Shown piece after piece: positions 1 to 19,134 of a stretch of DNA of 26,732 bases; the stretch's first letter is position 1; each line of letters starts with the position of its first letter. Origin of the DNA: an uncultured virus (IMG/VR IMGVR_UViG_2687453308_000004) (taxonomy: Duplodnaviria; Heunggongvirae; Uroviricota; Caudoviricetes); the IMG/VR virus record IMGVR_UViG_2687453308_000004; one strand, written 5' to 3'. The notes beneath the pieces were generated by a model, which saw only the letters and a list, made by a program, of their open reading frames with translations, was not told the DNA's origin and ran no database searches. The position numbers and the translations under genes are program-made.

Positions 1-111
1 CTGTTTTCTGACTTCAGTTAATGTCCACCCATACTGCTCCATACAGAAACGTTGTATTTTCTTAATGTTCGATAAAATGTCTTTTATTGAGATTGTTCTT
101 CTGTCTTTCCC
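1..111 (-). CDS. -1 frameshift extension of tail assembly chaperone (gpGT-like), truncated by window edge
   Basis: Slippery heptamer G GGA AAG at 105-111; -1 frame reads DRRTISIKDILSNIKKIQRFCMEQYGWTLTEVRKQ with no stop up to position 1. Confidence 0.8.
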
Positions 112-434
112 ATCTCTTCTGGTTCAGTTTCTGAATCTTCTTCATCTTCACCATTGATTTCTCGAAATATATCTTGTAAGGCTTTTGTATAAGTTTTAGT
201 ACTCATCTTGTTCAGAACATCTTCTTCAGTCAATCCTTCATCTTTAAATAAATCTACTAATAACTGTCGCTCTTTTTGTCTCATTTTTGTTGCGTTAGGT
301 GCTTCTTTTTTATTCTCTTGGTTTACTAATTCTAAATACTCATAGCATTTTTCTGCTTCGCCCATTGTTACATCTTCTTTTGTATAGCTCTCTGTTTTTC
401 CTGTTTTACGATCTTTAATTTCAAATTTAATCAT
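84..434 (-). CDS. Tail assembly chaperone (gpG-like)
   Basis: 116 aa acidic ORF downstream of tail tube genes, AAAAGGAG RBS, GGGAAAG near its 3' end. Confidence 0.85.
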   Translation of the reverse strand: MIKFEIKDRKTGKTESYTKEDVTMGEAEKCYEYLELVNQENKKEAPNATKMRQKERQLLVDLFKDEGLTEEDVLNKMSTKTYTKALQDIFREINGEDEEDSETEPEEMGKTEEQSQ

Positions 435-458
435 TGTATTAGCTCCTTTTATTCAAAT

Positions 459-485
459 AAAAAAGACGCAGATATACTGCGCCTT
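459..485 (-). terminator. Intrinsic terminator after Ig-like gene
   Basis: Minus strand AAGGCGCAG-TATAT-CTGCGTCTT followed by a T run. Confidence 0.75.
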
Positions 486-491
486 AAATCC

Positions 492-947
492 CTATCCGTT
501 TGTTACTGTCACTGAAATTTGTCCTGACTTATCGCTTCCATCAGTAGACATAGCAGTGATTACTGAAGTACCTTCAGCTACACCGTGAATTGCTCCTGTA
601 TTTTCATCTACAGTAACAAATTCTGGATGTTCACTTGTATATTTCAATATTTTATTCGTTGCTGTGCTTGGTGCAATGTTTGGCTCAACATTGTCATCGG
701 TATTTACCATAATTGATTTAGTTTCTGGTGTAAATGATACGCCTGAGACTAGAATTGGATTGGTTTTGAATTGAGGTACATCAACTTTACTAGATTCTTT
801 ACCATTTTCTTCCCATGCCACTTGGTAAGTACCTTTTGGATAAGTTGTATCCGCTTCTAAATTAGATAAAGTTACTGACACTTTGCCTTCACCTTGTTCA
901 GAAGCTACGACGTCGTCTCCTTTATAAACCTTTAAAGTTTTAGTCAT
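492..947 (-). CDS. Ig-like virion protein: N-terminal partial FN3-like region plus C-terminal Big_2-like domain
   Basis: N-half LKVYKG..VTLSNLEADTTY..YQVAW..ESSKVDVP; C-half VSGVSF..IAPSTATNK.LKYTS..VTVDENTG.I.GVAEGT.VITA; own RBS AAAGGAG. Confidence 0.85.
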   Translation of the reverse strand: MTKTLKVYKGDDVVASEQGEGKVSVTLSNLEADTTYPKGTYQVAWEENGKESSKVDVPQFKTNPILVSGVSFTPETKSIMVNTDDNVEPNIAPSTATNKILKYTSEHPEFVTVDENTGAIHGVAEGTSVITAMSTDGSDKSGQISVTVTNG

Positions 948-977
948 AAATTATTCTCCTTTGATTTATTTTGAAAG

Positions 978-1056
978 CCCCTATTCTGCTGAAACTGTTG
1001 CAGATTTTGAATTAACTGCTACTTCAACATTTTGGGGATTAGCTGGGTAACGAACC
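978..1056 (-). repeat. Frameshift cassette copy 1 (major tail gene 3' end; +1 extension 1046-981, PANPQNVEVAVNSKSATVSAE)
   Basis: Ungapped homology with 3139-3217; shared TTACCCAGCTAAnCCCCAAAAnGTT...TCAGCnGAATAGGGG. Confidence 0.9.
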
Positions 1057-1680
1057 TGCAGAATCCTCTGAATGATCTTCACTGTCCGTGTATCCAACGA
1101 ATACTTTTTTGAAGAATTCTGCTTCTCCTTCTTTACCTTCATGATAACCGTATACAATACCTTGTGACGTTCCATCAACATCAACTTTTCTATTCATCCA
1201 GTCACCTGTTAATTTTGTAGGTTCTGGGGCTTCTGCTTTTTCACCTCGTGTTTTAAATTCAATTGAATCTAAACTAAAAGTACCTTTAAGTAAGGCTACA
1301 TATACCGGCTGACCTGTTAAACCATCTTCCGATTCGCCAATTACTGTTACATACGGTGCTCTTGTATTCTCTCCTACCCAAGATGTACCATTTTTATCTT
1401 TAGTACGTCCAATAACTGTGTTTAAATCATCACTTGGAATATTGAAAATACTCATGTCAGACTTAACTTCATTAGTACCTTGTTTTTTCATCCATACACG
1501 TTTGTTAGATGCAAACATATCTACTAAATCTGGTGCTAAACCTGTGATATTTAGGTCAACTGTACCACCTTTTTCATCTTCCCATGTCATGCGTTTAACT
1601 ACTTTTGTTGCTTCTGGGTTAAAAACTCCAACGTATAATCTTTTAAAACCTACTTTATAAGAACCTTGTCCTTCTGCCAT
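1039..1680 (-). CDS. Major tail (tube) protein, phi13-family-like
   Basis: 213 aa, VGFKRLYVG N-terminus, position after tail completion genes, AAGGAGG RBS. Confidence 0.92.
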   Translation of the reverse strand: MAEGQGSYKVGFKRLYVGVFNPEATKVVKRMTWEDEKGGTVDLNITGLAPDLVDMFASNKRVWMKKQGTNEVKSDMSIFNIPSDDLNTVIGRTKDKNGTSWVGENTRAPYVTVIGESEDGLTGQPVYVALLKGTFSLDSIEFKTRGEKAEAPEPTKLTGDWMNRKVDVDGTSQGIVYGYHEGKEGEAEFFKKVFVGYTDSEDHSEDSAGSLPS

Positions 1681-1714
1681 TGCTTATTTCCTCCTTAAAA
1701 ATTAAAAAGCACAC

Positions 1715-2110
1715 CTATTCGATGCGCTGATTTTTATAATATATATTTTTGGGTATGCCTTGATATCGTCTCGACATCACATAACGTTTAGTTTCTTCAA
1801 AATAAGCATCTAACTGACTAGATGCTTGAATTAAATTTTGTTGATATAACAGGTATCTTATTCGTTTTGTTATATCAATTGTTTTCTGATTATTTGAAGA
1901 TTCTACATCTATTTGAATTAAGTATTCTTCACTGAGATATTTATCAGACATAAAGTCTGAAGGCAAATCATAAACAGGTGTAATAACAACAAAGGGTTTG
2001 GAAGTTTCAGCGTTTTCAGTGACTTTGTAATAGTATATTCTAGAATTTATATGTGTTTTGAGCTCTGCATCAGATAATAAAATTCCTTTTATGGTGTTTA
2101 ATATATTCAT
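1715..2110 (-). CDS. Putative tail terminator/completion protein
   Basis: 131 aa, PFVVITP..IQIDVES pattern, position directly before tail tube gene. Confidence 0.75.
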   Translation of the reverse strand: MNILNTIKGILLSDAELKTHINSRIYYYKVTENAETSKPFVVITPVYDLPSDFMSDKYLSEEYLIQIDVESSNNQKTIDITKRIRYLLYQQNLIQASSQLDAYFEETKRYVMSRRYQGIPKNIYYKNQRIE

Positions 2111-2512
2111 TTATCTGGCCAACTCCTTTTTTATAATTTCTCTATACTTACGTTCGCTAGCAGCTAATGTTTTTGCAATAACTCCAAAACCTCTTGGTGT
2201 ATATTTTTTTCCATCTCTTGTATAACCATGTTCATTCAAGTGAATAATGTTTTTGCGATTCATAGGGCCTACCCATTCAATTAAAACAGCCCTTTCTTGA
2301 CTGCCAACTTTTGTATAAGGCTTAGATTTAGTCATTTCTTCTATACTGGCACCCGTATCTTTAAAGCTCTCGAACTCTTTCTTTAAAGCCTTTATAAAAA
2401 ATTCAGATGCTTCATTTAAAGCTTTATCACTCTTAGCCTGCATTGCTTGTTTACCGTATACCGATTCTAATTTATTCAACACTTCAGGTATCCCTTTAAT
2501 TTCTACACTCAT
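2111..2512 (-). CDS. HK97 gp10-like neck/tail completion protein
   Basis: MSVEIKGIPEV start, DTGAS and IIHLNEHGY motifs, synteny. Confidence 0.75.
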   Translation of the reverse strand: MSVEIKGIPEVLNKLESVYGKQAMQAKSDKALNEASEFFIKALKKEFESFKDTGASIEEMTKSKPYTKVGSQERAVLIEWVGPMNRKNIIHLNEHGYTRDGKKYTPRGFGVIAKTLAASERKYREIIKKELAR

Positions 2513-2841
2513 TTTTCTGATAAAACCACTGTATTATAGCCAATATCTGGTGTATCAATTCTTATTTCTACAATGTTGAATAATTTATCGGAATATAATG
2601 CACTGTCAATTTTAACTAAGTGATTTGTTTGTGGTAGATATTCAGTTTTAGAAGACCTGACAATTATGGTTAATCCTGATTTTGATTCAGTCGCTTTTAA
2701 AATTTCTCTATCTTTCATAGAAGGATTATAAATTTTACAAAAGCAACTATACAATTTCATTTTTTCCTCTTCATCTGGATATGGTCCTTTGTTTATATAT
2801 TGAAAAAAATACGCGCGATCTTTAAATTCATTAAATTCCAT
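2509..2841 (-). CDS. Head closure / head-tail adaptor protein
   Basis: 110 aa, follows head-tail connector, ATGA-type overlap with next gene. Confidence 0.75.
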   Translation of the reverse strand: MEFNEFKDRAYFFQYINKGPYPDEEEKMKLYSCFCKIYNPSMKDREILKATESKSGLTIIVRSSKTEYLPQTNHLVKIDSALYSDKLFNIVEIRIDTPDIGYNTVVLSEK

Positions 2842-2852
2842 TTAAAAATCAC

Positions 2853-3131
2853 CTACCACTTTTTTAATTTCAAAATCATTTTTTGCAATCCTTTTTCATT
2901 AAACACCTTGCTTCTAGATTGGTCATTTGAGTATCCACGACTTTCATAATCTCTTGCAATGATATATTTAATCGCTGTACAAAAAAGCGGGTATTCCAAG
3001 TCATCTTTGTCATAATCTGGAACCCCACTTAATAGTAATTCAGACTTAGCCGATTGAATGAGACCTTCAATTAAATCATTTTCGAAATTATAGTCAATTC
3101 TCAACCACAATTTAATTTCTTCTAAACTCAT
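2853..3131 (-). CDS. Head-tail connector protein (HK97 gp6-like)
   Basis: MSLEEIKLWLRIDYNFENDLIEGLIQSA...YESRG pattern right after capsid. Confidence 0.88.
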   Translation of the reverse strand: MSLEEIKLWLRIDYNFENDLIEGLIQSAKSELLLSGVPDYDKDDLEYPLFCTAIKYIIARDYESRGYSNDQSRSKVFNEKGLQKMILKLKKW

Positions 3132-3138
3132 TTCATCA

Positions 3139-3217
3139 CCCCTATTCGGCTGATATTACAGCTGATTTAGCCTTAGCTGTTACATTAACCTTTTGGGGCT
3201 TAGCTGGGTAATGGACC
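3139..3217 (-). repeat. Frameshift cassette copy 2 (capsid gene 3' end; +1 extension 3207-3142, PAKPQKVNVTAKAKSAVISAE)
   Basis: Ungapped homology with 978-1056; fills the capsid-connector gap. Confidence 0.9.
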
Positions 3218-4363
3218 TGTATTTTCTTTTGCTTTTGCAATTCTGAATGCACTGTCTAATGTACGTTGCTGATCATACCATGCTGTTAATACAAACAAAT
3301 ATTCGCCTTTTTTAACATCTTTATCAGTGTCATAAGTTGTTCCATCATAGTTAATTCCAAAATAATTGAAATCTCCCACAATAGGTTTAACTGCTGCATC
3401 TGTAAATACTACTGGTTTGCCAAATACTTTTTCTGCTGGTGTGTCAAAGAAATTTGTTGTTCCATTTGAAAGAACACTAATAATTTTGACATAATCTGCA
3501 TATCGCATATAAATTGTTGCGTTATCACGATAATCTTCATGTAAATCTGCTAAAGCGTTAATAATAGCATCATACATGTCTGCTCCCTCAACTTCTTTAA
3601 CAGATCCATTATAAAATGACATGTGTTCTAATCCAGATTTAGGACTTACTGCTAAGGCATCTTTACGCTCTTTAGCTGCTAATCCTGATTGTAGTGCGTT
3701 TTCAACCCAGTTTACTAAATCTACATCTGATCCATGAATTACAGTATCTGAAATTGCAGCAAATACTTTGAATTTATTAGTAGTGAACTTGACTGTATCA
3801 CCTTTTGCTTTTAATTCTTTTGCTGTTTCTACGTCTGTAATGAAATCATCATCGTCTAAAGTGTATGAAACTCTTGGAATCTCTAAACCTTTAATGTTAG
3901 TTAGACGAGCTTTTTCACGTAATTGGTTTTTAGCAAATGGTTCTGAAACAATTTCTTTAGAAAGTGTTTTTGGTAAGAGCTTATCTCCACCTGAATCATT
4001 TCCTGTTGGTAAAGCGTGTAATAAACGTTGTGCCTCCATTGAAGGTTTTTCAAATTCATTTGGTAAAATCGCGTGACGATAAAACTCTGCCTTAGCTTTA
4101 ACCATCTTCTCATTATCACTTAAAGATTGATAAGCTTCTCCTTTATCTTTAACTTTCGCTTTTTCTTTCTCTTCAATGTCTTGCACTTGTCTTTCAACAA
4201 TGTTAAATCTTTGTTGTAAACCTGCTTTTTCTGTTTCTAGTTGTTTGATGTCTTCCATATCAATATTTGGATCTGTTGCTTTCTGACTCAATTCATCATT
4301 TTTATTTTTTAATTGTTGTCCAATCATACCTAAGGATTGTTTTAATTCATATAATGTCGGCAT
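3200..4363 (-). CDS. Major capsid protein, HK97 fold with N-terminal coiled-coil scaffold domain
   Basis: Start reassigned to MPTLYELK at 4363 (AGGAGG 7 nt upstream), 387 aa; GGDKLLPKTLS, VFGKPVVFTD, IVGDF motifs. Confidence 0.95.
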   Translation of the reverse strand: MPTLYELKQSLGMIGQQLKNKNDELSQKATDPNIDMEDIKQLETEKAGLQQRFNIVERQVQDIEEKEKAKVKDKGEAYQSLSDNEKMVKAKAEFYRHAILPNEFEKPSMEAQRLLHALPTGNDSGGDKLLPKTLSKEIVSEPFAKNQLREKARLTNIKGLEIPRVSYTLDDDDFITDVETAKELKAKGDTVKFTTNKFKVFAAISDTVIHGSDVDLVNWVENALQSGLAAKERKDALAVSPKSGLEHMSFYNGSVKEVEGADMYDAIINALADLHEDYRDNATIYMRYADYVKIISVLSNGTTNFFDTPAEKVFGKPVVFTDAAVKPIVGDFNYFGINYDGTTYDTDKDVKKGEYLFVLTAWYDQQRTLDSAFRIAKAKENTGPLPS

Positions 4364-4374
4364 TTCATTTCCTC

Positions 4375-5148
4375 CTAATAATTCATTGTCATTTTTAAAA
4401 TTTCGCATTCGCGTTTAATTTTTTCTCTTTTTTCTTTTTCTTCTAGTGACATACTTTCTTTAGGTGTTTCAACCAATTCAGATGTATCTACATCATCAAT
4501 TTTAGTGATTTTGTCTACATCTTTCTTTAAATCTTCTGGGACGTTCTCGAAACGCTTATATTGCTCTTTAGAGATACTAGCAGCTATTTCATTAGCTCCT
4601 AAAATTTCATCTATCAAGCCGAAAGACAAGGCTTCTTCTGCAGTAAGCCAAGTTTCTGCATCTAACATCTGTTTTAAGTGTTCTTGATCTAAATCTTTTG
4701 CTTTATCTAAATAAGCTGAATTACTAACAGCATCTGTTTTTTCAAGTAAATCCGCTGTCTTTCTTAATTCTTCTGCATTACCTACAGTCATAACCCATGA
4801 ATTATGAATCATTAAAAAACTGTTTTTGTGCATAAAAATAGTGTCACCACTCATAGCGATAACACTAGCAATTGATGCCGCTAAGGCATCGACATAGATA
4901 TTAATTTTTGCAGGATGCATTTTTAGCATATTGTATATTGCATGCCCTTCAAATACACTGCCTCCAGATGAATTTATATGAACATCTATTTCACTGATGT
5001 CTCCTAGTTCATCTAGTTTATTTTTGAAATCTGTAGCAGTTACATCACTTTCAAACCATTTATCACTTACAATATCACCATAAATAAATATTTCACCTTT
5101 ACTTTTTGATTTTCTTTTCATTTGAAAATACTTAGCTTTCATTGACAT
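4375..5148 (-). CDS. Prohead maturation protease, ClpP-like
   Basis: HINSSGGSVFEG, LAASIAS, LMIHN, ETWLTAEEA motifs; likely start MSMKAKY after AGGTGGTGA. Confidence 0.93.
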   Translation of the reverse strand: MSMKAKYFQMKRKSKSKGEIFIYGDIVSDKWFESDVTATDFKNKLDELGDISEIDVHINSSGGSVFEGHAIYNMLKMHPAKINIYVDALAASIASVIAMSGDTIFMHKNSFLMIHNSWVMTVGNAEELRKTADLLEKTDAVSNSAYLDKAKDLDQEHLKQMLDAETWLTAEEALSFGLIDEILGANEIAASISKEQYKRFENVPEDLKKDVDKITKIDDVDTSELVETPKESMSLEEKEKREKIKRECEILKMTMNY

Positions 5149-6370
5149 TTTTATCACCACCTTTCAAAGATTTTCTTAATTCAAGTGGCGTGTCAATTGG
5201 GTATAAATCACCGCTTATTAGCGGCTTATCTCCACCTTCAACTGGTGGTAAATCTTCCCACTCTCTAATGTCATTTATAGTGTAGTAACCACTACGAACT
5301 GCTTTAAAGTACACTTCTGCTTGTGTTGCACTATCAGCCCTTAAATAAGATTTAACGTTAAATTTAAAATACCTATTTTTTTCTCTGTCTGTTTTAGTAA
5401 GTAGTTTCCGATTAAATTCTTCTTCATACTGTTTGACGATTGGCAATAAGGTATGCTGCAAGTAAAATCTGTTTAACTCTTCATTTTTCGCGAAATTTGT
5501 ATTTGATCTTGCATTTAAGAATACTGAGGGCAATTGAAAAACGTTAGCTACTCTTTCTCTTGTTAAATTCTCGCTTGCCACTATATCTTCAGAGACATAT
5601 TTTTTAGGTAACGGTTCGATTTCAACACCAGGCTCTTGGAATAATATTCCACCGTTTTCTTCATAGTACTGTTTGAAATCTTCTAACACTTGCTGCCTTT
5701 TTTCTTTACCTACATTGGAACCATATTTAAGCATGAAAGAATCAGGTTTTTGCATTTCTGTAAGATTAAAGGTTCTTACTGCATTATCAAAATCAGTTGT
5801 ATTCTTCAACACATCAATCGGACTAATGCCTTGCACCATATTAGATGCCACGATGTGTTTAAAATGCAACATGTCCATATTATGAACAATCAATTTATTT
5901 CCAGTTGCAGCATGAATGGAATAATAAAGTTCACGTGATTGGTTTTCAATTAACATTTCAACAACATCTGGATTTAATAAGAAAAGCTTTGATGGTTGAT
6001 GATAGATGTCTCGTTCAATTAGCACATATGCATTACCTTTTTCATTTCTGATTGTTTCAATTTGATTAATAAAATCAAAACTGCTCAGAGAATTATTCGG
6101 TGACACTGTAAGTAAATCAGATACTTCTGTATTAACTACTTTATAATCTTCATACATTTTCAAGGGCAAACTAGCCATCGAATTAGATAACTTTGTAATA
6201 GCTGAAAATATCGTTTCATTAGTTTCAAGCGTATTATTGATTACACCCCAAAAAGATTTATTTTTCCATGGGCTAAAGTCATAAAGCTTAGAAGCTGACT
6301 GATCAATCCAATTGTCTATCAATTTTTTCTTTATGCGTGTGACAATATTCTCTTTTGCGATAACATTCAC
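5132..6370 (-). CDS. Portal protein, HK97 family (start codon uncertain)
   Basis: GNAYVLIER, GISPI, TINDIREWEDLPPVEGGD motifs; lies between TerL and protease. Confidence 0.95.
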   Translation of the reverse strand: MNVIAKENIVTRIKKKLIDNWIDQSASKLYDFSPWKNKSFWGVINNTLETNETIFSAITKLSNSMASLPLKMYEDYKVVNTEVSDLLTVSPNNSLSSFDFINQIETIRNEKGNAYVLIERDIYHQPSKLFLLNPDVVEMLIENQSRELYYSIHAATGNKLIVHNMDMLHFKHIVASNMVQGISPIDVLKNTTDFDNAVRTFNLTEMQKPDSFMLKYGSNVGKEKRQQVLEDFKQYYEENGGILFQEPGVEIEPLPKKYVSEDIVASENLTRERVANVFQLPSVFLNARSNTNFAKNEELNRFYLQHTLLPIVKQYEEEFNRKLLTKTDREKNRYFKFNVKSYLRADSATQAEVYFKAVRSGYYTINDIREWEDLPPVEGGDKPLISGDLYPIDTPLELRKSLKGGDKNVNES

Positions 6371-6374
6371 CTCC

Positions 6375-8066
6375 TTAACGCATTATATCTTTAATACTAA
6401 TAAATTCTATGTTTCCTTCACCCTTGTCAGAAACAACTTTATTCATAATATCTGTATATGTGTTTAAAAATGCTGCAAAGCCATCTATTTTACGATATCT
6501 GCTTTGCTTAGACGGCAACCAGTTTCCGTTTCTGTCTAGTTTCAACTGAACATTATTGATATACCATTTCATTAAAGGATTATTATTAAATATTATTTTC
6601 CCATCTAAAAACATTTCTTTTAAATCCTTCAATGCAGGGCTCAAGGTCAAAGCTCCTTGTCTTGTTTCTTCCGTTTCAAACCCGTAATTTTTTAACTCTT
6701 GATTTAGTTTGAATGCGTTCGCTCTATCATAAGTAATTTTTTCTACTACATAATGCTCATTCATCTTAATTATCCAATTTAAAACATCTTGGTAGTCAAT
6801 ATAAGGCTTATCTTGCACTGTTAATAAGCCATCTTCTTCCCATTCTCTATAGGGTATTTTTTCGTTAGAATATTCAACTTTGTGCTTAGGAATCCATGAA
6901 TGCGATAAAACTGCAACTTTACCATTATCTAACGCAAAAGTAGCACACGCGGCTGTAAAGTCCTCTGTTTCTGATAAATCATAACCAATCGTGCATGGTC
7001 TGCCTTCCAGCTCTTCTAAAGAAACAATTTCATTATTTTTTTGGAGTGTTGGGTAATCAATAAAACTCATCTCGTCATTATTAGCAAAGATATTAAACCT
7101 TTTGGTTATAAAATCTCCACGTTCAGCTGGTGTTCTCTTAGCTTTTTCCCACTCTTCTTTCATCTCATCTAAATTTATAGAGACACCTAAGTTGGGATTT
7201 GCTTTTATCCAGTTCGACGAATCATTAATATCATCGTCATCATCCAAAGATGCTAAATAATAAAAAGTTCTTTCGTCTTCTATGATTTGATCTAAGGTGT
7301 CTCTTCCCGCTTCTACCATATCAACAAGTGGACCATCTAATTGATACCCTGCTGTCGTAATGTAGATGAGAAGAGGTTGTAACCTTGCAGCTCTTGAGTT
7401 TTTTATAACTGAAATCAATTTATAGTCTTTAAATTCATGAATTTCATCAAAAATCCCCATGTGTGTATTCAATCCATCTAACTTATCGCTATCTGATGCT
7501 TGGGGCATAATTTTTGATATCGTTGCGTCATAATGGATTTCATCTCTTAATGTTCTGAAATTTTTATCAAGCTTTGGGCTAGCTTTTATCATCGCCTTAG
7601 ATTCATCGAATAATATTCTAGCTTGTTTCATTACGTTTGCTAAAAGATGGATTTCAGCGCCGTTTTCTCCATCTTGAGAAACAGCATAGTTAGCAACACC
7701 AGATATAGTAGTTGTTTTACCATTTTTTCGCCCCATAAATATCAAAGCTTCTTTAAACCTGCGCAGTTTTGTTTCTTTATGAACCCAACCAAACAAACTG
7801 CCAATAATAAAATGTTGCCATGGTTGTAATACAAGTTGACGTTTAGATCCTTTGGAAGGTTTACAAAACTTTTCTATGAATCGAATAGGACGATGCGCTA
7901 ATTCTTCATCAAATACCCATTTACCTCCATTTTCTAGATATCTAAGATGTCTCTCACATTCTTTTCTAACATATTTGCTTGTTTTTATTTTCCCTTGAGT
8001 GACTTGCTCTGCATACCATGTTGTTAATAGTTTTGGTGAAGGTTCATTTAAAACTTTAATAGTCAC
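6375..8066 (-). CDS. terL: Terminase large subunit
   Basis: Walker A GRKNGKT, Walker B GIFDEIH, YITTAG, GYDLS and KIDG nuclease motifs; likely GTG start at 8066. Confidence 0.97.
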   Translation of the reverse strand: MTIKVLNEPSPKLLTTWYAEQVTQGKIKTSKYVRKECERHLRYLENGGKWVFDEELAHRPIRFIEKFCKPSKGSKRQLVLQPWQHFIIGSLFGWVHKETKLRRFKEALIFMGRKNGKTTTISGVANYAVSQDGENGAEIHLLANVMKQARILFDESKAMIKASPKLDKNFRTLRDEIHYDATISKIMPQASDSDKLDGLNTHMGIFDEIHEFKDYKLISVIKNSRAARLQPLLIYITTAGYQLDGPLVDMVEAGRDTLDQIIEDERTFYYLASLDDDDDINDSSNWIKANPNLGVSINLDEMKEEWEKAKRTPAERGDFITKRFNIFANNDEMSFIDYPTLQKNNEIVSLEELEGRPCTIGYDLSETEDFTAACATFALDNGKVAVLSHSWIPKHKVEYSNEKIPYREWEEDGLLTVQDKPYIDYQDVLNWIIKMNEHYVVEKITYDRANAFKLNQELKNYGFETEETRQGALTLSPALKDLKEMFLDGKIIFNNNPLMKWYINNVQLKLDRNGNWLPSKQSRYRKIDGFAAFLNTYTDIMNKVVSDKGEGNIEFISIKDIMR

Positions 8067-8361
8067 CGAATCCACCTTCTTCTTGAACTATCTTTTTTCT
8101 TTGTGCTGCAGTTAAACCCATAGACTTGAGTAAGTTATTTAGTGTTTGAACTGTTTTTGTCAGTTCTATGCTTAATGGATTCTTAATAATATTGCTCGCA
8201 CCAGCCTTGTTTGTATGCTCTATCATTAAATCACTATTTTTAAGTTCATCTCTTAACCGACAATAAAATTCATATGTTTCTATATACAAATTAATTAATA
8301 TGTCATCAGATTTTTTGTAATCTTCTATATATTCTTTTAGCTGTTTTTTTGTTAACTTCAT
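8056..8361 (-). CDS. terS: Terminase small subunit (P27-like)
   Basis: KNP...LKSMGLTAAQR motif directly upstream of terL; start MKLTKK after AAAGGGGG. Confidence 0.9.
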   Translation of the reverse strand: MKLTKKQLKEYIEDYKKSDDILINLYIETYEFYCRLRDELKNSDLMIEHTNKAGASNIIKNPLSIELTKTVQTLNNLLKSMGLTAAQRKKIVQEEGGFGDY

Positions 8362-8390
8362 ATAAAGACCCCCTTTCATGAAAAATTTAT

Positions 8391-8460
8391 CCGCGTTGCT
8401 AGCGTTTGGGCCTCTCCGGTACCCGGCGAAAAAACATTTTAAGCCGATGGGCAGGGGGGC
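8391..8460. other. Putative cos packaging site region
   Basis: Short GC-rich island (minus GCCCCCCTGCCC...CCGGGTACCGGAGAGGCCC) in AT-rich spacer between HNH and terS, the usual cos position. Confidence 0.7.
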
Positions 8461-8489
8461 ATAAAATTTTATTTAAATAATTTTTTTAT

Positions 8490-8804
8490 TTAAATTTTTA
8501 GAACTCTAATTTTCTTAAGATTACTTTTGTCATTATCATTTGCATGAATTTTGTTATGACAGCTATAACAAACTGACATTAGATTATCTAAGTCTAAAGC
8601 TTTGTTAAAATCTTCATCAACATAAATAATGTGATGCACAATCTTTGCATCTGTTATAATATCTTCGCGTAAACACATTTGACAAAGATAATTATCTCTA
8701 TCTAATGCTATCTCTCTTAACTTCTTCCATGCTTTTGAATGATAGAACCAATCGTATTGATATGACTTACGACCATGCTTATAAATGTTATTATGCTTGG
8801 TCAT
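8490..8804 (-). CDS. HNH endonuclease (cos packaging cofactor)
   Basis: RDNYLCQMC, VHHI, NLMSVCYSCHNKIH; adjacent to terS. Confidence 0.93.
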   Translation of the reverse strand: MTKHNNIYKHGRKSYQYDWFYHSKAWKKLREIALDRDNYLCQMCLREDIITDAKIVHHIIYVDEDFNKALDLDNLMSVCYSCHNKIHANDNDKSNLKKIRVLKI

Positions 8805-8827
8805 CTCTTACACCTCTTTGATTGCAT

Positions 8828-8858
8828 AACAAAAGACACACCGCTTAGCGATGCGCCT
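8828..8858 (-). terminator. Terminator-like hairpin upstream of HNH
   Basis: AGGCGCATCGC-TAA-GCGGTGTGTCT followed by TTTGTT. Confidence 0.55.
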
Positions 8859-8900
8859 CATGTATTTATGTCGTATAACTTTATACATCTTTCCGATACT

Positions 8901-8948
8901 ATCATATTACTACAGATTTGTAGGCCTTTTGCACAATCTTTGCACAAT
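8901..8948 (-). promoter_or_regulatory. Putative RinA-dependent late promoter
   Basis: Tandem ATTGTGCAAA x2 (8939-8948, 8928-8937) right after rinA stop; -10-like TATGAT at 8901-8906; no good -35. Confidence 0.6.
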
Positions 8949-8949
8949 G

Positions 8950-9387
8950 TTATTTGATACCTGCATGATACGCTATCGCTTTAACAAAGTTCTTTCGTAT
9001 TGTAGTAACTGTATTGCGATGCATGTGACAAGCATCCCCTATTTGTTCTATCTTTAGCTTCTTATCTTTATTCCAATACTTTAACCTTATTACTTTCTTA
9101 TGATCTTCAGGTAACTTTAAGTACTCACTTTCAACTGCTTCAACCATCTCTTCTAAGTTACGTAACATCTTATTAGTCAATAACCTTGTCGCCATTAACT
9201 CAGTTGTTCTAACTGGCTCTCCTTTTTGTAACGGTCCATACACAATGTTGGTGTCTAGTTCTTTCGTTGGGTTAAGTATCTCCATTCTCAATCTATTTAT
9301 CTCTTTCTTGTTCTCATTTAAATTATATATTTCTGATTCAATATATTTAAATGTTCCTGGCTTAATATCATATGATGCCTTTCCCAT
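8950..9387 (-). CDS. rinA: RinA-family late transcription activator
   Basis: FKYIESEIY...LRNLEEMVEAVE...KVIRLKYW with C-terminal HTH; last gene before packaging module. Confidence 0.88.
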   Translation of the reverse strand: MGKASYDIKPGTFKYIESEIYNLNENKKEINRLRMEILNPTKELDTNIVYGPLQKGEPVRTTELMATRLLTNKMLRNLEEMVEAVESEYLKLPEDHKKVIRLKYWNKDKKLKIEQIGDACHMHRNTVTTIRKNFVKAIAYHAGIK

Positions 9388-9399
9388 CTTATACCTCCA

Positions 9400-10758
9400 T
9401 TACTTATGCTTAGCTATTCTTGCTTTAATAGCTTTCATCAATTCTTCTTGCGTTAGTTCTTTATTTTGTAAAGCTTTATATACTCTTTGATCTATTGTGT
9501 TATCGGTCATGATGTGATGAATAATAGTCGTATGATTTTGTCCTTGTCTATATAATCTAGCATTTGCTTGTTGGTATAATTCCAAGGACCATGTAAGTCC
9601 AAACCAAACAATAATGTGCCCACCTTGTTGTAAGTTTAATCCATGTCCTGCACTTGCTGGATGTGCTATAAGCAACTTAATGTCTCCACTGTTCCAACGT
9701 TCTTTATAGTTTGAATCCTCTAATGTGGTTGCTTCCTTAAACCTTTGAAGTATTCTTTCTTTATCGTGTTTGAAGTTATAAAACAATAGTATTGGTTGGC
9801 CTTGAGACTCCTCTATAATTTCCTCTAACTTATCTAACTTCTTATCATGTATAAGTCTTACATCTTCCTCATCTGTATAAACTGCGCCGTTAGATAGTTG
9901 AAGTAGTTTCTGACTTAATGATGCCCCATTTTGAGCTACAACTGTTCCTTCTTCTTCCGATTCTAAAATATAGTTTTTTTCTAATTCTTCATATACTTTT
10001 CTTTCTTTTTCTGATAAGACTACTGTTTGTTTAGTATCAACTCTGTCAGGCATATCCAGATAATCTTTCGCTTTCATGCTTAAACATATATCTTCTATTT
10101 GTTTATATATCTTTTCTTCAGATCCGTCTCTTAGCTCCCACTTAAAAATATGTTCGCTAACTTGATGAGTTGGTTTAAAGTACCTTTCTCGATAACGACT
10201 GAATGAAGACTCAAGTCTTTCACCTCTGTCTATCAAATAAACTTGAGCCCATAAATCCTGTAAACTATTTGGACTAGGTGTTCCTGTTAATCCTATAAAT
10301 CTATTAATGAGTGGTAATTTCTTTTTAATAGATTTAAACCTTTGACTCTTAGGACTTTTAAATGTAGACAGTTCATCAATCACAACCATGTCAAATGGCC
10401 ATTCTTTTTTATATTGATCACATAACCATTTAGTATTTTCTTTATTGGTTACATAGATATCAGCCTCTGTGTTTAATGCATCATTTCTTTCTTTAGGTGT
10501 TCCTAAGATTAAAGACACTTTCAGATGATTTAAATGGTTCCACTTATCAACTTCATCAACCCATGTATCTTTAGCAACTTGTTTAGGTGCTATAACTAAC
10601 ATTTTTTTAGTGTCTAACAACTGCAATTCACTAAATGCTGTAAGTGTTGATACTGTTTTCCCTAGACCCATATCTAAAAACAGACCGTATTTCTCATTAT
10701 CTATCACTTTATCTATTGCATACTTTTGATAGCTATGTGGTTTGAAGTCAATCGCCAA
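9400..10758 (-). CDS. SNF2-family helicase
   Basis: DMGLGKT, VVIDE, LTGTP, AGHGLNLQ, QANARLYRQGQ; likely TTG start at 10758. Confidence 0.93.
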   Translation of the reverse strand: MAIDFKPHSYQKYAIDKVIDNEKYGLFLDMGLGKTVSTLTAFSELQLLDTKKMLVIAPKQVAKDTWVDEVDKWNHLNHLKVSLILGTPKERNDALNTEADIYVTNKENTKWLCDQYKKEWPFDMVVIDELSTFKSPKSQRFKSIKKKLPLINRFIGLTGTPSPNSLQDLWAQVYLIDRGERLESSFSRYRERYFKPTHQVSEHIFKWELRDGSEEKIYKQIEDICLSMKAKDYLDMPDRVDTKQTVVLSEKERKVYEELEKNYILESEEEGTVVAQNGASLSQKLLQLSNGAVYTDEEDVRLIHDKKLDKLEEIIEESQGQPILLFYNFKHDKERILQRFKEATTLEDSNYKERWNSGDIKLLIAHPASAGHGLNLQQGGHIIVWFGLTWSLELYQQANARLYRQGQNHTTIIHHIMTDNTIDQRVYKALQNKELTQEELMKAIKARIAKHK

Positions 10759-11038
10759 ATGTTCCACCTACCATTCTGATAAAAGTATTTACTTGTTCTT
10801 TATTCCATAACACATATACTTTATGATCTCTATTTTCAAATTGTCTATGCACATATTTTTGTAAAGGATGCAACTTTCCTTTTTCTTGCTTCATTTCTAC
10901 AAAATATGTTTTTCCTTCTGGCATAATAATAATTCTATCTGGCACACCTCTTGTTCCAGGTGCAACCCATTTTAAACATAAACCGTTTAGCTTTGTTATC
11001 TCTTTCACTAAATATTTTTCTAATGTCGATTCTTTCAT
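10748..11038 (-). CDS. VRR-NUC domain nuclease
   Basis: GVPDRI...FVEMK...LHPLQ motif; start MKESTLEK. Confidence 0.9.
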   Translation of the reverse strand: MKESTLEKYLVKEITKLNGLCLKWVAPGTRGVPDRIIIMPEGKTYFVEMKQEKGKLHPLQKYVHRQFENRDHKVYVLWNKEQVNTFIRMVGGTFGD

Positions 11039-11077
11039 ATATTCACCTTGTATACAAAATTTATATTTGTGTTCCGA

Positions 11078-11349
11078 TGTTGCATCAATTCTTGCCAAAC
11101 TTTTAAAAATAGCTGTTAGAGGGTTACCCCTATACCCCTTTACTCCCTAACACTACTTTTTAAACTTTATAGTGAATTTGATGCAACATTGGAAACAAAC
11201 AGGGTTGAACCCTACAGCGAGAAGGGGAAGAGGTGTTGTATCATTTGTTGCATCAATGTTGCATCACCAAAAATGATACAACACCTAAGATTACTTTTTA
11301 CACCACCGTGTTGCATCACTCAAAAAATGATGCAACATTTGATACAACA
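11078..11349. repeat. Iteron-like array TGTTG(C/T)ATCA x9; putative replication origin
   Basis: Forward copies at 11078, 11234, 11246, 11257, 11309; reverse copies at 11179, 11274, 11328, 11340; lies in the gap after the primase/helicase. Confidence 0.8.
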
Positions 11350-11378
11350 TCTAAAAATGTATATTTATTCAATATTTC

Positions 11379-13826
11379 TTATATTAAATCCTCTAAACTT
11401 TCATCTCTTACATACGCTATCTGTACACCATAATCTTTTCCGAATCGAATTTTCCCACTTTTATTACCATCATATACAGACCAATTGTCTAATTGTCTTA
11501 AGATGTTTGAAATCTTTCTAATTTCCATAGATCCTCTACTATCTCCCTTATCTTTACCAAAACATTCAACAAACACTTCAAGCGCACAGACCTTATTTCT
11601 TTCAACGTAATCTACATTTCCTGTTGGTAACATATCAACATCACCTTGATAAAATCGTCTTCGTTCAAAGATAGTTAAGTCTTCCCAATTGCTTGGGATT
11701 GGCGTGTTAAGATATTCATCAATAATACCTGTATATGGAGATTCCTCAGTATGTTTGCTTTGGATTGAACGCATTTCTTCTTCTAGTTCAGGGTTAAGGA
11801 ATAACTCTTCTCCTTGTTCATAATAGTGTTTAGCTTCTGCCCAAATTTGGTCGATCTCATCTTTGGTTAGTTTAGACCAGTTCACTTCAACTCTCTCTGG
11901 ATTTACAGTCATTGGCCAAAAACGTCTTCCACCAGTTTCATCTCTTAAGAAATCAACTTTATTAGTTGTACCAATGAAAATACATTGCCTTGGAAAATCT
12001 TCAATATAATGCCCATAAGCAACACGAAATCGGTCAACTTGTTTAGATATGAAATGCTTAATAGCTTCAACTTCAGCTTTTCTTGTAGCTGCAAGTTCTG
12101 CCATTTCCATTAGCCAAACGCCTTGTAAGGCCTCATAAGCTTCTTTACCTGTAACAGAAACTAAACTGTCAGAAAACCATGCACCACCTAATTTTTTTAG
12201 CAAAGCAGATTTACCTACACCTTGAGGACCATAAAGTGTAAGCATATAGTCAAATTTACATCCAGGCTCCATTACTCGAGCGATTCCAGCAGTCAATGCT
12301 TTTTTGGTAGTTGTTCTATTCACTTCAGTGTCTTCAACACCTAAGTATTTGATAAATAACTTTTCAAGACGTTTATGTCCATCCCACGATATTTTATTTA
12401 GATAATCCCTTACTGGATGATAAGCATTTTGCATTGCTACGCTTATAATGGCATCTTTTGTTTTACCTGAATGGTGTATGTCATAAATCTTTTCGATATA
12501 ACTTCTTAAACTGCTATCATCACCGTCTTGCCATTGACGTGTCTTAAAATTAGTATTCCATGGCACTTTCCCTAAACATTCAATTTGTTTCGTAAATTCG
12601 TTAAAGGCTATTTTTCCTTTTAAATTTGGATCATTACGCAATATAATTTCTATATTTGGAATACTAGCTTTGAAAGTACCTTTCGAAGTAATTTCTAACG
12701 TTTCAGACCATGCATCATCGCTATTTTCTATTTCATCGAAATCCTGCATTGCATCAGACATTTTGTCATTAATTAATTGCTTTTTAACAACTTCATCATT
12801 TTGCGCTCTTTGCTGCATTGCTTTATAACTAGGTAGTCGATTAACCGGAGTATCTGTTTTAGCGTCTTCATCTTGAGCACCATATAAGTGTATGCGTACT
12901 AAATCAAAACTGTTCACAAGCATACCGCTTACGGGATCCGTATTATGATGAGAATAGGCAAACTTGTTATTTTCGTATAACACCAATCCACCTGCAGTTG
13001 AACCTTCATGATAGGTATAACGGTTAGTAGAATGTTTTTCGTATAAATCAGGAATAAAAGTTTCTATAGCTTCTTCTATCGTATAGGCTCTACAAAATGC
13101 GCCAACAATTCCCGGCTTTTCTTCTGGGTCACCTTGCTTATCTGCTAATCTTTTAGTCTTACTCTCTTCCCTTGAAGACGTTGGCCATTCTAATGTGTCA
13201 GTCCAATCAACATATTCATTTAATATTTTATCTGGATCTAACAAAGGTAAATCTTCATAGGTAAAGAAAAATTCTGCATCGTTGCTAGTTGAAGGCCAAT
13301 ACATTAACCTATGAGGTTGATAAGTTGTATCATCGAAGTAATCCATGCCAACGATATCTGCCACTTTACGTCCAATAGCTTCATACTCATCTGCATTTAC
13401 ATTTCGTTTTAAAGGAATCACTAAACGCAGTCTTGGACTTATCTCTCTATGCTTATGTGTTGAATATAAACAATATGCAAAATCATAAAACATAGATAAT
13501 ATGTCAGTCATATCTTGAGCAGCATAATCGATATCAAGTGTTAGCATTGAACGATTCATGACTTGACCAGCACGCCGTTTCCCTTCTTTTAAATATCCGC
13601 CGACAAATCCACCAACATCTTTTATATCGGCTTGTTCAGACTTAGACATTTTATTGTACTCAGTTAAATCTTCTTTAGTTCTAACTGTTTGTGCTAGCTT
13701 CTGCATAAAGTCAGACCAAGCCATATTGTGATTAGTCCAATATGTGGATAAACGACTAGCAGCATAAGAATATGAGACATCACGATCATATTTAATTGTT
13801 TCTATTTGAGTGACTTTGTCTAACAT
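11379..13826 (-). CDS. VirE/VapE-family primase-helicase-like replication protein
   Basis: N-terminal LTLDID, YSTHKH, RLRLVIPL (primase-like); C-terminal GPQGVGKS, FIGTTN, GGRRFWP (P-loop ATPase). Confidence 0.9.
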   Translation of the reverse strand: MLDKVTQIETIKYDRDVSYSYAASRLSTYWTNHNMAWSDFMQKLAQTVRTKEDLTEYNKMSKSEQADIKDVGGFVGGYLKEGKRRAGQVMNRSMLTLDIDYAAQDMTDILSMFYDFAYCLYSTHKHREISPRLRLVIPLKRNVNADEYEAIGRKVADIVGMDYFDDTTYQPHRLMYWPSTSNDAEFFFTYEDLPLLDPDKILNEYVDWTDTLEWPTSSREESKTKRLADKQGDPEEKPGIVGAFCRAYTIEEAIETFIPDLYEKHSTNRYTYHEGSTAGGLVLYENNKFAYSHHNTDPVSGMLVNSFDLVRIHLYGAQDEDAKTDTPVNRLPSYKAMQQRAQNDEVVKKQLINDKMSDAMQDFDEIENSDDAWSETLEITSKGTFKASIPNIEIILRNDPNLKGKIAFNEFTKQIECLGKVPWNTNFKTRQWQDGDDSSLRSYIEKIYDIHHSGKTKDAIISVAMQNAYHPVRDYLNKISWDGHKRLEKLFIKYLGVEDTEVNRTTTKKALTAGIARVMEPGCKFDYMLTLYGPQGVGKSALLKKLGGAWFSDSLVSVTGKEAYEALQGVWLMEMAELAATRKAEVEAIKHFISKQVDRFRVAYGHYIEDFPRQCIFIGTTNKVDFLRDETGGRRFWPMTVNPERVEVNWSKLTKDEIDQIWAEAKHYYEQGEELFLNPELEEEMRSIQSKHTEESPYTGIIDEYLNTPIPSNWEDLTIFERRRFYQGDVDMLPTGNVDYVERNKVCALEVFVECFGKDKGDSRGSMEIRKISNILRQLDNWSVYDGNKSGKIRFGKDYGVQIAYVRDESLEDLI

Positions 13827-13878
13827 GTTCGGCTCCTTTCATTATTTTAGATAGAGCAGAGAAGCCTATCGCCTCTCT

Positions 13879-14079
13879 TTAGCTTTTGAATCTTTTTCTA
13901 ATTCGTTCAACTTCATTTTCATAATCTTCTAAACCTTCAACACCATTATTTTTTACTAACTGCTTGAAAAGATAAGCATTCATATACTCCAATGCTTCTA
14001 TGGTTTTCATCTTATGAGAAATGCTACTTAACAAGATCAATAAAAATATAGATAAAACAATTGAAATGACAATCCACAT
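13879..14079 (-). CDS. DUF1514-like small membrane protein
   Basis: MWIVISIVLSIFLLILL start after GGAGGTG RBS. Confidence 0.8.
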   Translation of the reverse strand: MWIVISIVLSIFLLILLSSISHKMKTIEALEYMNAYLFKQLVKNNGVEGLEDYENEVERIRKRFKS

Positions 14080-14081
14080 AT

Positions 14082-14153
14082 TTACAACACCTCCAGTGCT
14101 ATTGCTAAACACATTAATATAATTAATTCAAAAATGATAATAGCTATTACCAT
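14082..14153 (-). CDS. Putative 23-aa hydrophobic peptide MVIAIIIFELIILMCLAIALEVL
   Basis: Translated by hand; overlaps rinB stop and ends 2 nt before the next ATG. Confidence 0.4.
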   Translation of the reverse strand: MVIAIIIFELIILMCLAIALEVL

Positions 14154-14299
14154 GAAACTTCAGCTCTGATTTTTTCAAAATCACTCGGCACCTCTACATC
14201 ATCATTAGCCGTCATCATAATATATACTTGCTCAGTTACATACTTACCTAGCTCATACATTGCTAGTAAGAATAATAGTCTTAATATTTGTTTAATCAT
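14147..14299 (-). CDS. rinB: RinB-family protein (50 aa, absent from ORF track)
   Basis: Hand translation MIKQILRLLFLLAMYELGKYVTEQVYIMMTANDDVEVPSDF... Confidence 0.88.
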   Translation of the reverse strand: MIKQILRLLFLLAMYELGKYVTEQVYIMMTANDDVEVPSDFEKIRAEVSW

Positions 14300-14685
14300 T
14301 GTTTATCTACCTTCTTTGCTTCGTATAAGACCGGATATAAATTTAAAAAGTGTATTCTATATCCAATCGTCTTAACTTCTACTTTGTCGCCTACTTTTAA
14401 CCTAGCTTGTATGTCTGCGCTATCAAATTTCTTTTTGAATAATAAGTCGGAGTTTTCAATGACTTGTTTGTTGTCTAATACAATATAGAACTTGTCTTCT
14501 TTATCTTGTCTCTTGTTATATTTATCTGTAATTGTCCCTTGATGTACTTCTTTGTTTTGGTAACTAGCCACTGTATAGATAGGCGATATGACAACAAGCA
14601 TCAGTGCGATTACGCCGAATAATCGCAGTATTCCAGCAATAAAGATATCGAACCAATCCATATTTTTAAGTTTTTTAATCATCAT
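14296..14685 (-). CDS. DUF1523-like membrane-anchored protein
   Basis: N-terminal TM segment then ITDKYNKR...IENSDLLFKKKFDSADIQA. Confidence 0.75.
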   Translation of the reverse strand: MMIKKLKNMDWFDIFIAGILRLFGVIALMLVVISPIYTVASYQNKEVHQGTITDKYNKRQDKEDKFYIVLDNKQVIENSDLLFKKKFDSADIQARLKVGDKVEVKTIGYRIHFLNLYPVLYEAKKVDKQ

Positions 14686-14914
14686 TGCCATCTCCAGTAT
14701 CAATTAAACTAGGCATCATTCTTAACATAGCCCTTAATTCATGTTCATTCATATTAGCCATCATAGGACTGTAAAATTCACTGTCTTTATCATTAATTTC
14801 TTTAATGAAATCATCTTCAATCTTAGCTTTTTCTTCAGGTGTTTTATTTTTATATTTTTTGATTATTTCAGTGTACTTTTTCGGGAATTTCATTTTAGGT
14901 ATGTTAATCATCAT
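14675..14914 (-). CDS. Hypothetical phage protein
   Basis: 79 aa, GAGGAGG RBS, overlaps both neighbours. Confidence 0.75.
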   Translation of the reverse strand: MMINIPKMKFPKKYTEIIKKYKNKTPEEKAKIEDDFIKEINDKDSEFYSPMMANMNEHELRAMLRMMPSLIDTGDGNDD

Positions 14915-15191
14915 CTGCCTCCTCGAATGGTTTCATTGTCTCAATATTAATATCCACCATACCCTCGTTTGGTTCGACTTTTTCAACGTGAAAGATACCA
15001 ATATTTGATTTGATATCGTTTAAGTTGGTCGCTCCATCAACTGGTTTGTTCCGTGCCTCATATTTCTCTTTCGCTTCTTCTTTACTCTCTGCCTCAACAA
15101 CTGTAAACCTTTGATTACTCTTAACTTTAGTTATGTGCGTATGTTTACGTCCTGTTGAATCTTTGAATGTTGTGACTAAATATTGTGTCAC
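14904..15191 (-). CDS. DUF1381-like protein
   Basis: MTQYLVTTFKDSTGR...FTVVEAESKEEAKEKYE. Confidence 0.8.
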   Translation of the reverse strand: MTQYLVTTFKDSTGRKHTHITKVKSNQRFTVVEAESKEEAKEKYEARNKPVDGATNLNDIKSNIGIFHVEKVEPNEGMVDINIETMKPFEEADDD

Positions 15192-15227
15192 TTCCCCAAA
15201 ACCTCCTTGACTCGATCTAAGATGTCT

Positions 15228-16002: not shown

Positions 16003-16013
16003 TTCCATCTCCT

Positions 16014-16256: not shown

Positions 16257-16258
16257 AG

Positions 16259-17102: not shown

Positions 17103-17114
17103 TCAATCACACTC

Positions 17115-19076: not shown

Positions 19077-19099
19077 ATTCTTGACACCTCAATTTCTTT

Positions 19100-19128
19100 A
19101 AAATTAAAGTGGGGCTAAAACCCCACCT
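19100..19128 (-). terminator. Intrinsic terminator-like hairpin between SSB-like gene and polymerase
   Basis: AGGTGGGGT-TTTA-GCCCCACTT followed by TAATTTT. Confidence 0.6.
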
Positions 19129-19134
19129 ATTGAC

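Follow-up and report, generated by a model that had tools for sequence, protein, structure and literature searches.

A candidate FN3 domain divided between frameshift-added tags on head and tail proteins and a free Ig-like protein in Staphylococcus and Enterococcus phages

Whole Ig-like domains added by frameshifting are known from phages SPP1, A2 and T3, and in SPP1 a minority of tail tube subunits (gp17.1*) reportedly gain a C-terminal FN3 domain by programmed frameshift. Phage Ig-like domains have been proposed to adhere weakly to cell-surface or matrix carbohydrate. In chaperone-usher pili, an Ig-like pilin without its C-terminal G strand is completed by an N-terminal extension, a step assisted by a periplasmic chaperone and an usher; SpyTag/SpyCatcher is an engineered split CnaB2 joined by an isopeptide bond; and T4 Hoc binds the assembled capsid lattice via its own capsid-binding domain. 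Here we analyse a 26,732-nucleotide stretch of DNA (IMG/VR record IMGVR_UViG_2687453308_000004; hereafter the window, meaning the whole stretch), which by its sequence matches is a Triavirus (phi12/47-like) prophage of Staphylococcus aureus, and in which short peptides encoded in the +1 frame beyond the ends of the capsid and tail tube genes (tags) and a separate gene for a 151-residue protein (the catcher) appear to hold complementary parts of one FN3 domain.

Two bands of the SPP1 tail tube protein and an extension of 9.1 kDa are described in the available part of PMC5221750, T4 Hoc is mentioned as an Ig-like, trans-binding capsid decoration in that of PMC13370021, and +1 frameshifts at CCC near the 3′ ends of the capsid and tail genes of Listeria phage PSA (also A118 and A500) are given in the accessible portion of a review. 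For the window we consider it likely that a split FN3 domain is rejoined in trans and decorates head and tail via frameshift-added tags; fold prediction and comparison with other phages suggest that the two halves probably bind each other.

Shift sites, tags and the free catcher gene

The genes for the capsid protein (3200-4408) and the tail tube protein (1039-1680) share the end TTACCCAGCTAA, their last 12 bases being identical. The features concerned are as follows.

3200-4408, minus strand: major capsid protein, 402 residues, HK97-like with delta domain (Pfam Phage_capsid, 59.3 bits)
3200..3211, minus strand: proposed +1 shift site TTA CCC AGC TAA of the capsid gene (CCC at 3206-3208)
3145..3204, minus strand: capsid tag, 20 codons in the +1 frame, AKPQKVNVTAKAKSAVISAE, stop TAG at 3142-3144 (tag profile independent E-value, i-E, 1.4e-07)
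3138..3199, minus strand: equivalent predicted RNA hairpin enclosing the capsid tag (minimum free energy, MFE, -22.4 kcal/mol, z -2.1)
1039-1680, minus strand: major tail (tube) protein, 213 residues (Pfam Phage_TTP_1, 51.8 bits)
1039..1050, minus strand: proposed +1 shift site TTA CCC AGC TAA of the tail tube gene (CCC at 1045-1047)
984..1043, minus strand: tail tag, 20 codons in the +1 frame, ANPQNVEVAVNSKSATVSAE, stop TAG at 981-983 (tag profile i-E 6.8e-07)
978..1037, minus strand: predicted RNA hairpin enclosing the tail tag (CCCC 1034-1037 pairs with GGGG 978-981; MFE -18.1 kcal/mol, z -2.8)
948..983, minus strand: spacer with three in-frame stops (TAG, TAA, TAA) and the ribosome-binding site (RBS) AAAGGAG (956-962)
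492-947, minus strand: open reading frame (ORF) for the free 151-residue protein (ATG 947-945; RBS AAAGGAG 956-962)
756..947, minus strand: catcher N-domain, residues 1-64, FN3 strands C, C′, E, F and G
495..755, minus strand: displayed cargo, a Big_2 Ig-like domain, residues about 65-151

The tail tag shares its reading frame with ORF 492-947, three stops (TAG, TAA and TAA) falling between them within 36 nucleotides (nt), and AAAGGAG lies 8 nt 5′ of the ATG of that ORF. The gene 3′ of the capsid gene encodes a head-tail adaptor, not a partner for the capsid tag. Over 21-residue stretches (tag and preceding Pro) the capsid and tail tags are 57% identical; both lack the Trp usual in FN3 strand B, which is found in the tags of Enterococcus phages EG103P3 and EF653P1. 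An earlier note on this DNA, made from its letters alone, had described this arrangement, with the positions, the stops, the RBS, the CCC sites, the missing Trp and a capsid tag without a downstream partner, and all of it was present as described.

In the mechanism that we propose, from the sequence and published masses, most ribosomes would stop at TAA and a fraction would slip +1 at CCC_A, two codons before the stop, adding 20 residues, and head and tail subunits would each occur in two forms, without and with the tag. The added residues would make up FN3 strands A and B, ending right after strand B. The free protein would contribute C, C′, E, F and G in its first 64 residues and Big_2 in the rest, and its N-domain would dock by taking the tag hairpin as its missing A-B, giving an A-B-E sheet. 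Docking on tags would mean that one gene decorates capsid and tail with Big_2 domains, with the number of decoration sites set by the frequency of ribosome slippage. By extension, the capsid tag would work in the same way as the tail tag, and occupancy would depend on how frequent the shift is.

Slippage of +1 at CCC is proposed by analogy with the CCC_N +1 sites of Listeria phages. Both sites of the window read CCC AGC TAA, with the elements of a PSA-type site (CCC, then a stop or slow codon, and an open +1 frame beyond), and CCC is invariant across five aligned Staphylococcus-type cassettes; the shift sites of SpP, VP16 and EG103P3 have CCC TAA or CCC TAG. The predicted hairpin begins 7-8 nt 3′ of the CCC shift codon and is closed by an invariant CCCC and an invariant GGGG just past the tag's stop; its consensus, drawn from only five Staphylococcus-type cassettes, has 17 pairs, six with changes on both sides. 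This hairpin may be a frameshift stimulator, and the tag sequence would therefore be peptide and signal both.

At the DNA level, SN8 6370-6500 (after the capsid gene) and window 948-1050 (after the tail gene) have a cassette alike in shift site, tag, GAATAGGGG, spacer and adjoining catcher gene. From these sequences the cassette of shift site, tag and spacer seems to have moved as one unit.

Published virion measurements, here taken from the available parts of the papers cited, were compared with calculated masses. Matrix-assisted laser desorption/ionisation (MALDI) spectra of intact phages 3A, 42E and 47 were assigned a tail protein at 23,295 and an 'Ig-like domain' protein at 15,871, and signals at 25,208 and 12,598, common to six Triavirus phages, were unassigned (PMC5923470). 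For phage 47 we calculate 23,294.7 for the tail protein without Met (published 23,295 and 23,293), 15,871.2 for the Ig-like protein and 25,204.7 for the +1 tail product without Met, 3.3 Da from the 25,208 peak. By mass alone, the short tail protein would correspond to the 23,295 peak and the long one to that at 25,208. No ORF of the phage 47 genome, with any start, lies within 15 Da of 25,208; another ORF as the source of this peak was rejected, the internal-start ORF 9400-10053 of the window (25,194.2) being 14 Da off. By the published spectra, the free 151-residue protein is a virion component. In phi12, a mature capsid protein of 30,374 Da, capsid protein gel bands of 29.5 and 32.6 kDa, and 96% peptide coverage of gp38, a 16.0 kDa 'minor tail protein', have been reported (PMC8569155); our calculated mass for the mature capsid protein from L129 is 30,374.8, and for its frameshifted form 32,310. 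Two capsid bands about 3 kDa apart were likewise seen in phiEf11, for which the authors proposed a 21-residue -1 extension (PMC5221750).

Predicted folds of the catcher with and without a tag

Folded alone by AlphaFold with 52 aligned sequences, the product of ORF 492-947 gave a predicted local distance difference test (pLDDT) score of 96.7, with N-domain strands at residues 3-9, 12-19 and 42-47 plus short bridges. In this model the stretch from about residue 20 to residue 34, which contains VSVTLSNL, was strandless, and the N-domain consisted of one sheet and an unpaired strand E. The read-through model comprised tail tag, spacer and ORF as a single chain of 183 residues, with the three stops read as Q (table 6) and the tag region covered by zero alignment rows. 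Its pLDDT was 94.7; the tag formed strands 4-10 and 15-20 (block pLDDT 88 and 94), the spacer was weakest (71), and VSVTLS, unpaired in the protein alone, became strand 54-59. In FN3, strand E pairs only with strand B, so the pairing in the read-through model is what the FN3 fold requires. With VIA-align, read-through residues 1-95/97 superposed on whole single FN3 domains at Z 9.5-10.2 and root-mean-square deviation (rmsd) 2.3-2.6, as in these matches:

2w1n: Z 10.2, rmsd 2.3, 83 residues aligned
7y8h: Z 9.9, 83 residues aligned, target length 92
5x83_C: Z 9.7, 86 of 95 residues
4n68: Z 9.5, 87 of 99 residues

The seven strands of FN3 (PF00041), in sheets A-B-E and C′-C-F-G, were found only in tag plus N-domain, the N-domain alone being without A-B. 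The number of Foldseek matches at E ≤0.001 rose from 79 for the protein alone to 464 for the read-through, where tandem FN3 pairs appear; with the whole alone model, Big_2 dominated the Foldseek matches, which were uninformative on the N-domain. The earlier note had taken the frameshift peptides for strands A-B and ORF 492-947 for the remaining strands followed by a Big_2-like domain, and had expected an FN3 domain completed by the tag; the models bear this out for the tail tag, with strands C-G in the N-domain, an incomplete domain in the protein alone and a completed one in the single-chain read-through.

Sequence profiles point to the same division. Big_2 (PF02368) matched residues 67-140 at 37.3 bits (gathering threshold 22.8), and the best matches of this domain by Foldseek and VIA-align were Big_2 domains, including those of T5 pb6 and lambda gpV (against 7r3t_B, Z 14.8 and rmsd 1.3). 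Residues 1-66 matched no Pfam family, and the N-domain alone did not match Pfam fn3, which aligned with read-through residues 2-68 on profile positions 2-62; fn3 scores of 64.7 and 83.7 bits were obtained for P0105 and P0093, respectively, two contiguous relatives. A profile of the N-domain found FN3 domains first among PDB sequences (1fnh, E 5.2e-4), and its positions 20-51 align to residues 52-81 of the 91-residue FN3 domain 6hnf; the N-domain therefore begins about 30 residues into the FN3 fold. The PDB sequences searched held no solved structure of a close N-domain relative.

Residues 1-66, used as the query of a full HMMER search, gave 83 cluster representatives at E ≤0.001; the catcher profile scores 72 of the 83, and in 61 of the 83 the domain starts within the first 14 residues. 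These homologues range from about 65 to more than 600 residues and consist of the N-domain alone, of the N-domain with one to three Big_2 domains or, in one case (P0086, 622 residues), of an N-terminal catcher fused to a GDSL lipase/acylhydrolase domain (69.3 bits), from which the catcher may bring enzymes to the virion besides Ig-like domains. Catchers of the N-domain only (73 residues in VP16; the 76-residue gp157 of phage 812) mark the N-domain as a conserved unit. Ten multi-domain relatives were inspected. In the nine of phage type (P0025, P0027, P0043, P0052, P0056, P0060, P0066, P0068 and P0072), 24-42 residues that resemble a tag with a short loop after it stand before some or all of the C-G blocks; in P0068 the blocks are far apart, and the long stretches between them finish with segments that resemble tags and have retained the FN3 Trp. 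The tenth, P0104, has a different repeat with a partial profile match, in which a repeat of 60-61 residues, not tag-like, stands before the blocks. The tag-like segments before C-G blocks suggest that tag and catcher are one domain of an FN3 subfamily, cut in the B-C loop: every aligned tag stops two or three residues past strand B, and the catcher starts where strand C starts. Among the 61 N-terminal catchers, 14 bear a tag themselves, at the C-terminus.

Three adjacent genes of phage 812 (8337-9746), for gp155, gp156 and gp157, resemble a chain: gp155 has an unknown N-domain and a C-terminal tag, gp156 is a catcher with Big_2 and a tag, and gp157 is a catcher only. Masses of 23,069, 17,718 and 7,818 (gp155, gp156 and gp157, respectively) are among the Kayvirus virion peaks in the accessible part of PMC5923470. 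The neck decoration proteins of phage 812 were considered as relatives and rejected, those being gp164 and gp56, and their paper is silent on gp155-157.

Recurrence across phages and rival explanations

Phages of Staphylococcus and Enterococcus repeatedly combine tags with a free N-truncated protein. In ten catcher-bearing siphophages (the window, SN8, VP16, IME197, EG103P3, EF653P1, SpP, phiNASRA1, EF36P3 and phiEf11), a tag lies at the 3′ end of the capsid gene in all ten and at that of the tail tube gene in nine, and the catcher gene is 3′ of the capsid gene in six and of the tail tube gene in four. Neither tag nor catcher was found in 80alpha (whole genome) or PSA (first 20 kb). The co-occurrence that the earlier note had proposed as a check, and its suggestion of docking in trans on head and tail alike, thus fit the distribution. 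The capsid tags of EF36P3 and phiEf11 have weak profile scores, yet the peptide is at the exact place. The tagged proteins belong to unrelated families (capsid PF05065 and PF25209; tail tube PF04630 and PF06199), which take in 14 of the 16 ORFs scanned, the other two being phage 812 gp155 and its IMG/VR homologue. The shift types differ as well: +1 at CCC, then a stop or one codon, or -1 at G_GGA_AAG, a five-G run, A_AAG or A_AAA_AAA. The tail tag is in frame in SN8 and phiEf11, and a single stop and five codons separate tag and catcher ORF in IME197 and phiEf11.

In phiEf11 the capsid -1 extension is a tag of the same family, and the catcher gene is 3′ of the tail gene. The tail protein of this phage (ORF15, 9121-9714) carries its tag in frame, from which every tail subunit would be tagged. 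This 21.5 kDa protein migrates at 28-30 kDa on sodium dodecyl sulphate polyacrylamide gel electrophoresis, according to the available part of PMC5221750.

The tag profile was built from 34 tags, including those of the window, VP16, IME197, SN8, EG103P3 and phage 812; EF653P1, SpP, phiNASRA1, EF36P3, phiEf11 and the IMG/VR loci served as independent tests. Against the window it matched nothing besides the tags (next best E about 5). In 80 IMG/VR loci (1.88 million six-frame residues, cut-off i-E < 0.01) there were 130 matches, 123 of them +1-frame matches spanning the 3′ end of an ORF of at least 100 residues and the remaining seven at in-frame C-termini; zero were found elsewhere in these residues and zero on the other strand. 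Both tags are present in 47 of 50 near-identical Triavirus loci, the other three being contigs that end early upstream. A first profile failed on the Trp-containing tags of EG103P3 (E 9.7), which were recognised by eye; the second is weak for some capsid tags (EF36P3, i-E 0.28-0.39; phiEf11, 0.081; L074, 0.45) and did not report the in-frame tail tag of phiEf11. Tag conservation shows an every-second-residue hydrophobic pattern, with buried positions alternating in strand B; the last of these is the FN3 Trp position, which holds W in four of 19 tags and A, L or V in the others. Mean tag identity is 60% within a phage (11 pairs) versus 32% between phages (160 pairs), a difference reached in 0 of 10,000 label shuffles.

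Several observations weigh against a split domain rejoined on tagged heads and tails. EF36P3 has a catcher but no tail tag; the L074-L083 lineage has a weak capsid tag (i-E 0.45), and its tail protein, extended in frame by a low-complexity tail, shows no clear tag. For fn3 the read-through reaches 14.3 bits (E 0.049), under the 25-bit gathering threshold. AlphaFold is very confident in the N-domain alone (pLDDT 92-97), which may accordingly be stable without a tag, and the tag-containing fold is a single chain through the natural spacer, with the tail tag only, a joining that itself favours docking. The within-phage tag identity is also explicable by common descent or recent duplication, not a shared partner. 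The two capsid bands of phi12 were ascribed by the authors to a second cleavage, and the words decoration, frameshift and Ig-like occur nowhere in the available part of that cryo-electron microscopy paper (PMC8569155). Finally, the shared MALDI signals listed in the accessible part of PMC5923470 do not include a species of 32.3 kDa.

Some of these points would also suit a free protein that decorates the virion via another surface, be it Big_2 or an N-domain face, with tags that are unrelated and, for example, tune assembly or stability. The confident fold of the N-domain alone and the catcher without a tail tag in EF36P3 agree with such an arrangement. We nevertheless think it unlikely: it leaves aside that catchers of the N-domain only (VP16, phage 812 gp157) make this domain the conserved unit, that tag and catcher stand together in ten of ten siphophages and are both absent in two of two controls, and that the end of the tag coincides with that of strand B and the start of the catcher with that of strand C. 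The layout could also be an evolutionary remnant, an FN3-Big_2 extension broken by stops that left decaying tags and an accidental downstream ORF, as the tail tag in frame with ORF 492-947 across three stops, and the mere stop and five codons in IME197 and phiEf11, might suggest. Decay cannot explain catchers with C-terminal tags of their own, however, and phages of Staphylococcus and Enterococcus keep the layout although their shift sites differ, the capsid tag is conserved despite having no downstream ORF, and the catcher gene has its own RBS and a product abundant in virions; we judge a remnant to be very improbable.

Hardly credible, in our view, is the absence of any frameshift, the +1 ORFs remaining untranslated and their conservation reflecting an RNA hairpin at the 3′ ends of both genes. 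The hairpin over the tag region, with its 6 of 17 pairs changed on both sides and z of -2.8 and -2.1, speaks for this explanation, which does not account for the 25,208 Da peak, 3.3 Da from the frameshift product and not within 15 Da of any other phage 47 ORF, for the two capsid bands in phi12 and phiEf11, for the occurrence of the tag peptide without a shift on catchers and on two tail proteins, those of SN8 and phiEf11, or for the protein-level hydrophobic pattern of the tags.

Rejoining of the split FN3 domain in trans may be one instance of something broader, a natural, modular, non-covalent tag-and-catcher kit in phages of Gram-positive bacteria; taken as a whole, this wider proposal appears to us about as likely to be right as wrong. 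Any structural protein could receive a two-strand FN3 tag, whether in frame or through a frameshift of +1 or -1, and a five-strand catcher would head free proteins with varied cargo (Big_2, or the GDSL esterase in P0086). Catchers that end in a tag would extend into non-covalent bead chains, as in the phage 812 order gp155, gp156, gp157, and in the Staphylococcus type the tag-encoding RNA would fold into a hairpin causing the slip into the tag.

The structural module of the window is on its minus strand. Of the 107 phage records that match bases 1-4500, 102 do so over 80% of the query or more, and 104 are Staphylococcus phages (phi12, 47, phiSLT and phiSa2 kind; genus Triavirus). Its other genes are:

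6375-8075, minus strand: large terminase
5132-6370, minus strand: portal
4375-5160, minus strand: protease
between the capsid and tail tube genes in the module listing, minus strand: connector genes
84-434, minus strand: tail chaperone (Phage_TAC_19)

In related records a small ORF is found 3′ of the tail chaperone gene, before the tape measure gene; the region after the tail chaperone gene is the usual place of the conserved -1 chaperone frameshift. In the near-identical phage P240 the tail tube gene (1539-2181) is annotated as two pieces, GP10 and GP11, probably owing to an indel or sequencing error in the record.

Significance and relation to known systems

If binding holds, these phages would use an undescribed way to attach decoration proteins to virions, with the number of sites set by recoding and with one decoration gene serving head and tail alike. 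This would explain the unassigned Triavirus peak at 25.2 kDa, the capsid doublets seen in phi12 and phiEf11, and why small 'major tail proteins' are abundant in Kayvirus virions, would correct hundreds of gene annotations as 'major tail protein' or 'hypothetical', and would provide a natural peptide-domain pair for cargo display on phage particles. A literature search, with some key papers outside its reach, turned up no account of a split domain or of a tag that docks in trans.

As in SPP1 gp17.1*, the share of decorated subunits would follow shift frequency. Unlike SPP1, which adds a whole domain on the same chain, the window phage would add strands A-B only, 20 residues to the TAG; such an extension is not the complete same-chain Ig-like domain of the SPP1, A2 and T3 type. 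A separate gene product would bring the rest together with Big_2, and the capsid would get a related tag too. The window phage resembles PSA (Cps-L and Tsh-L) in having a +1 frameshift at CCC at the capsid and tail gene ends of one phage. PSA itself was considered as a member of the tag system and rejected: its cps extension (47 residues; 5126-5287) is SAP/HeH-like (27.8 and 24.9 bits, with an endonuclease VII dimerisation motif at 32 bits), its tsh extension of 24 residues is acidic, and bases 1-20,000 contain no tag or catcher. The phiEf11 capsid doublet we regard as a member of the tag system and not as a precedent, its authors having linked the extension to no fold or neighbour.

With donor-strand complementation in pili, the proposed system would share a strand-deficient Ig-like fold completed by another polypeptide, and catchers that end in a tag could likewise chain head-to-tail. 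In contrast to pili, the missing strands in the window phage are the N-terminal A-B, they would come from a C-terminal tag, and there is no known helper; the structural module of the window has no chaperone or usher genes, which sets it apart from the chaperone-usher class. As in SpyTag/SpyCatcher, a short peptide and a truncated Ig-like domain would restore one fold; the separate MALDI masses of 15,871 and 25,208, in the available part of PMC5923470, argue against a covalent link between tag and catcher. Like T4 Hoc, a free protein would show Ig-like domains on the virion surface, but the attachment site in the window phage would be a peptide on single subunits, of head and tail both. Altogether, frameshift-added Ig-like domains, paired capsid and tail frameshifts and the completion of a fold by donated strands are already known, and what would be new here is the division of one domain between a recoded structural subunit and a free decoration protein.

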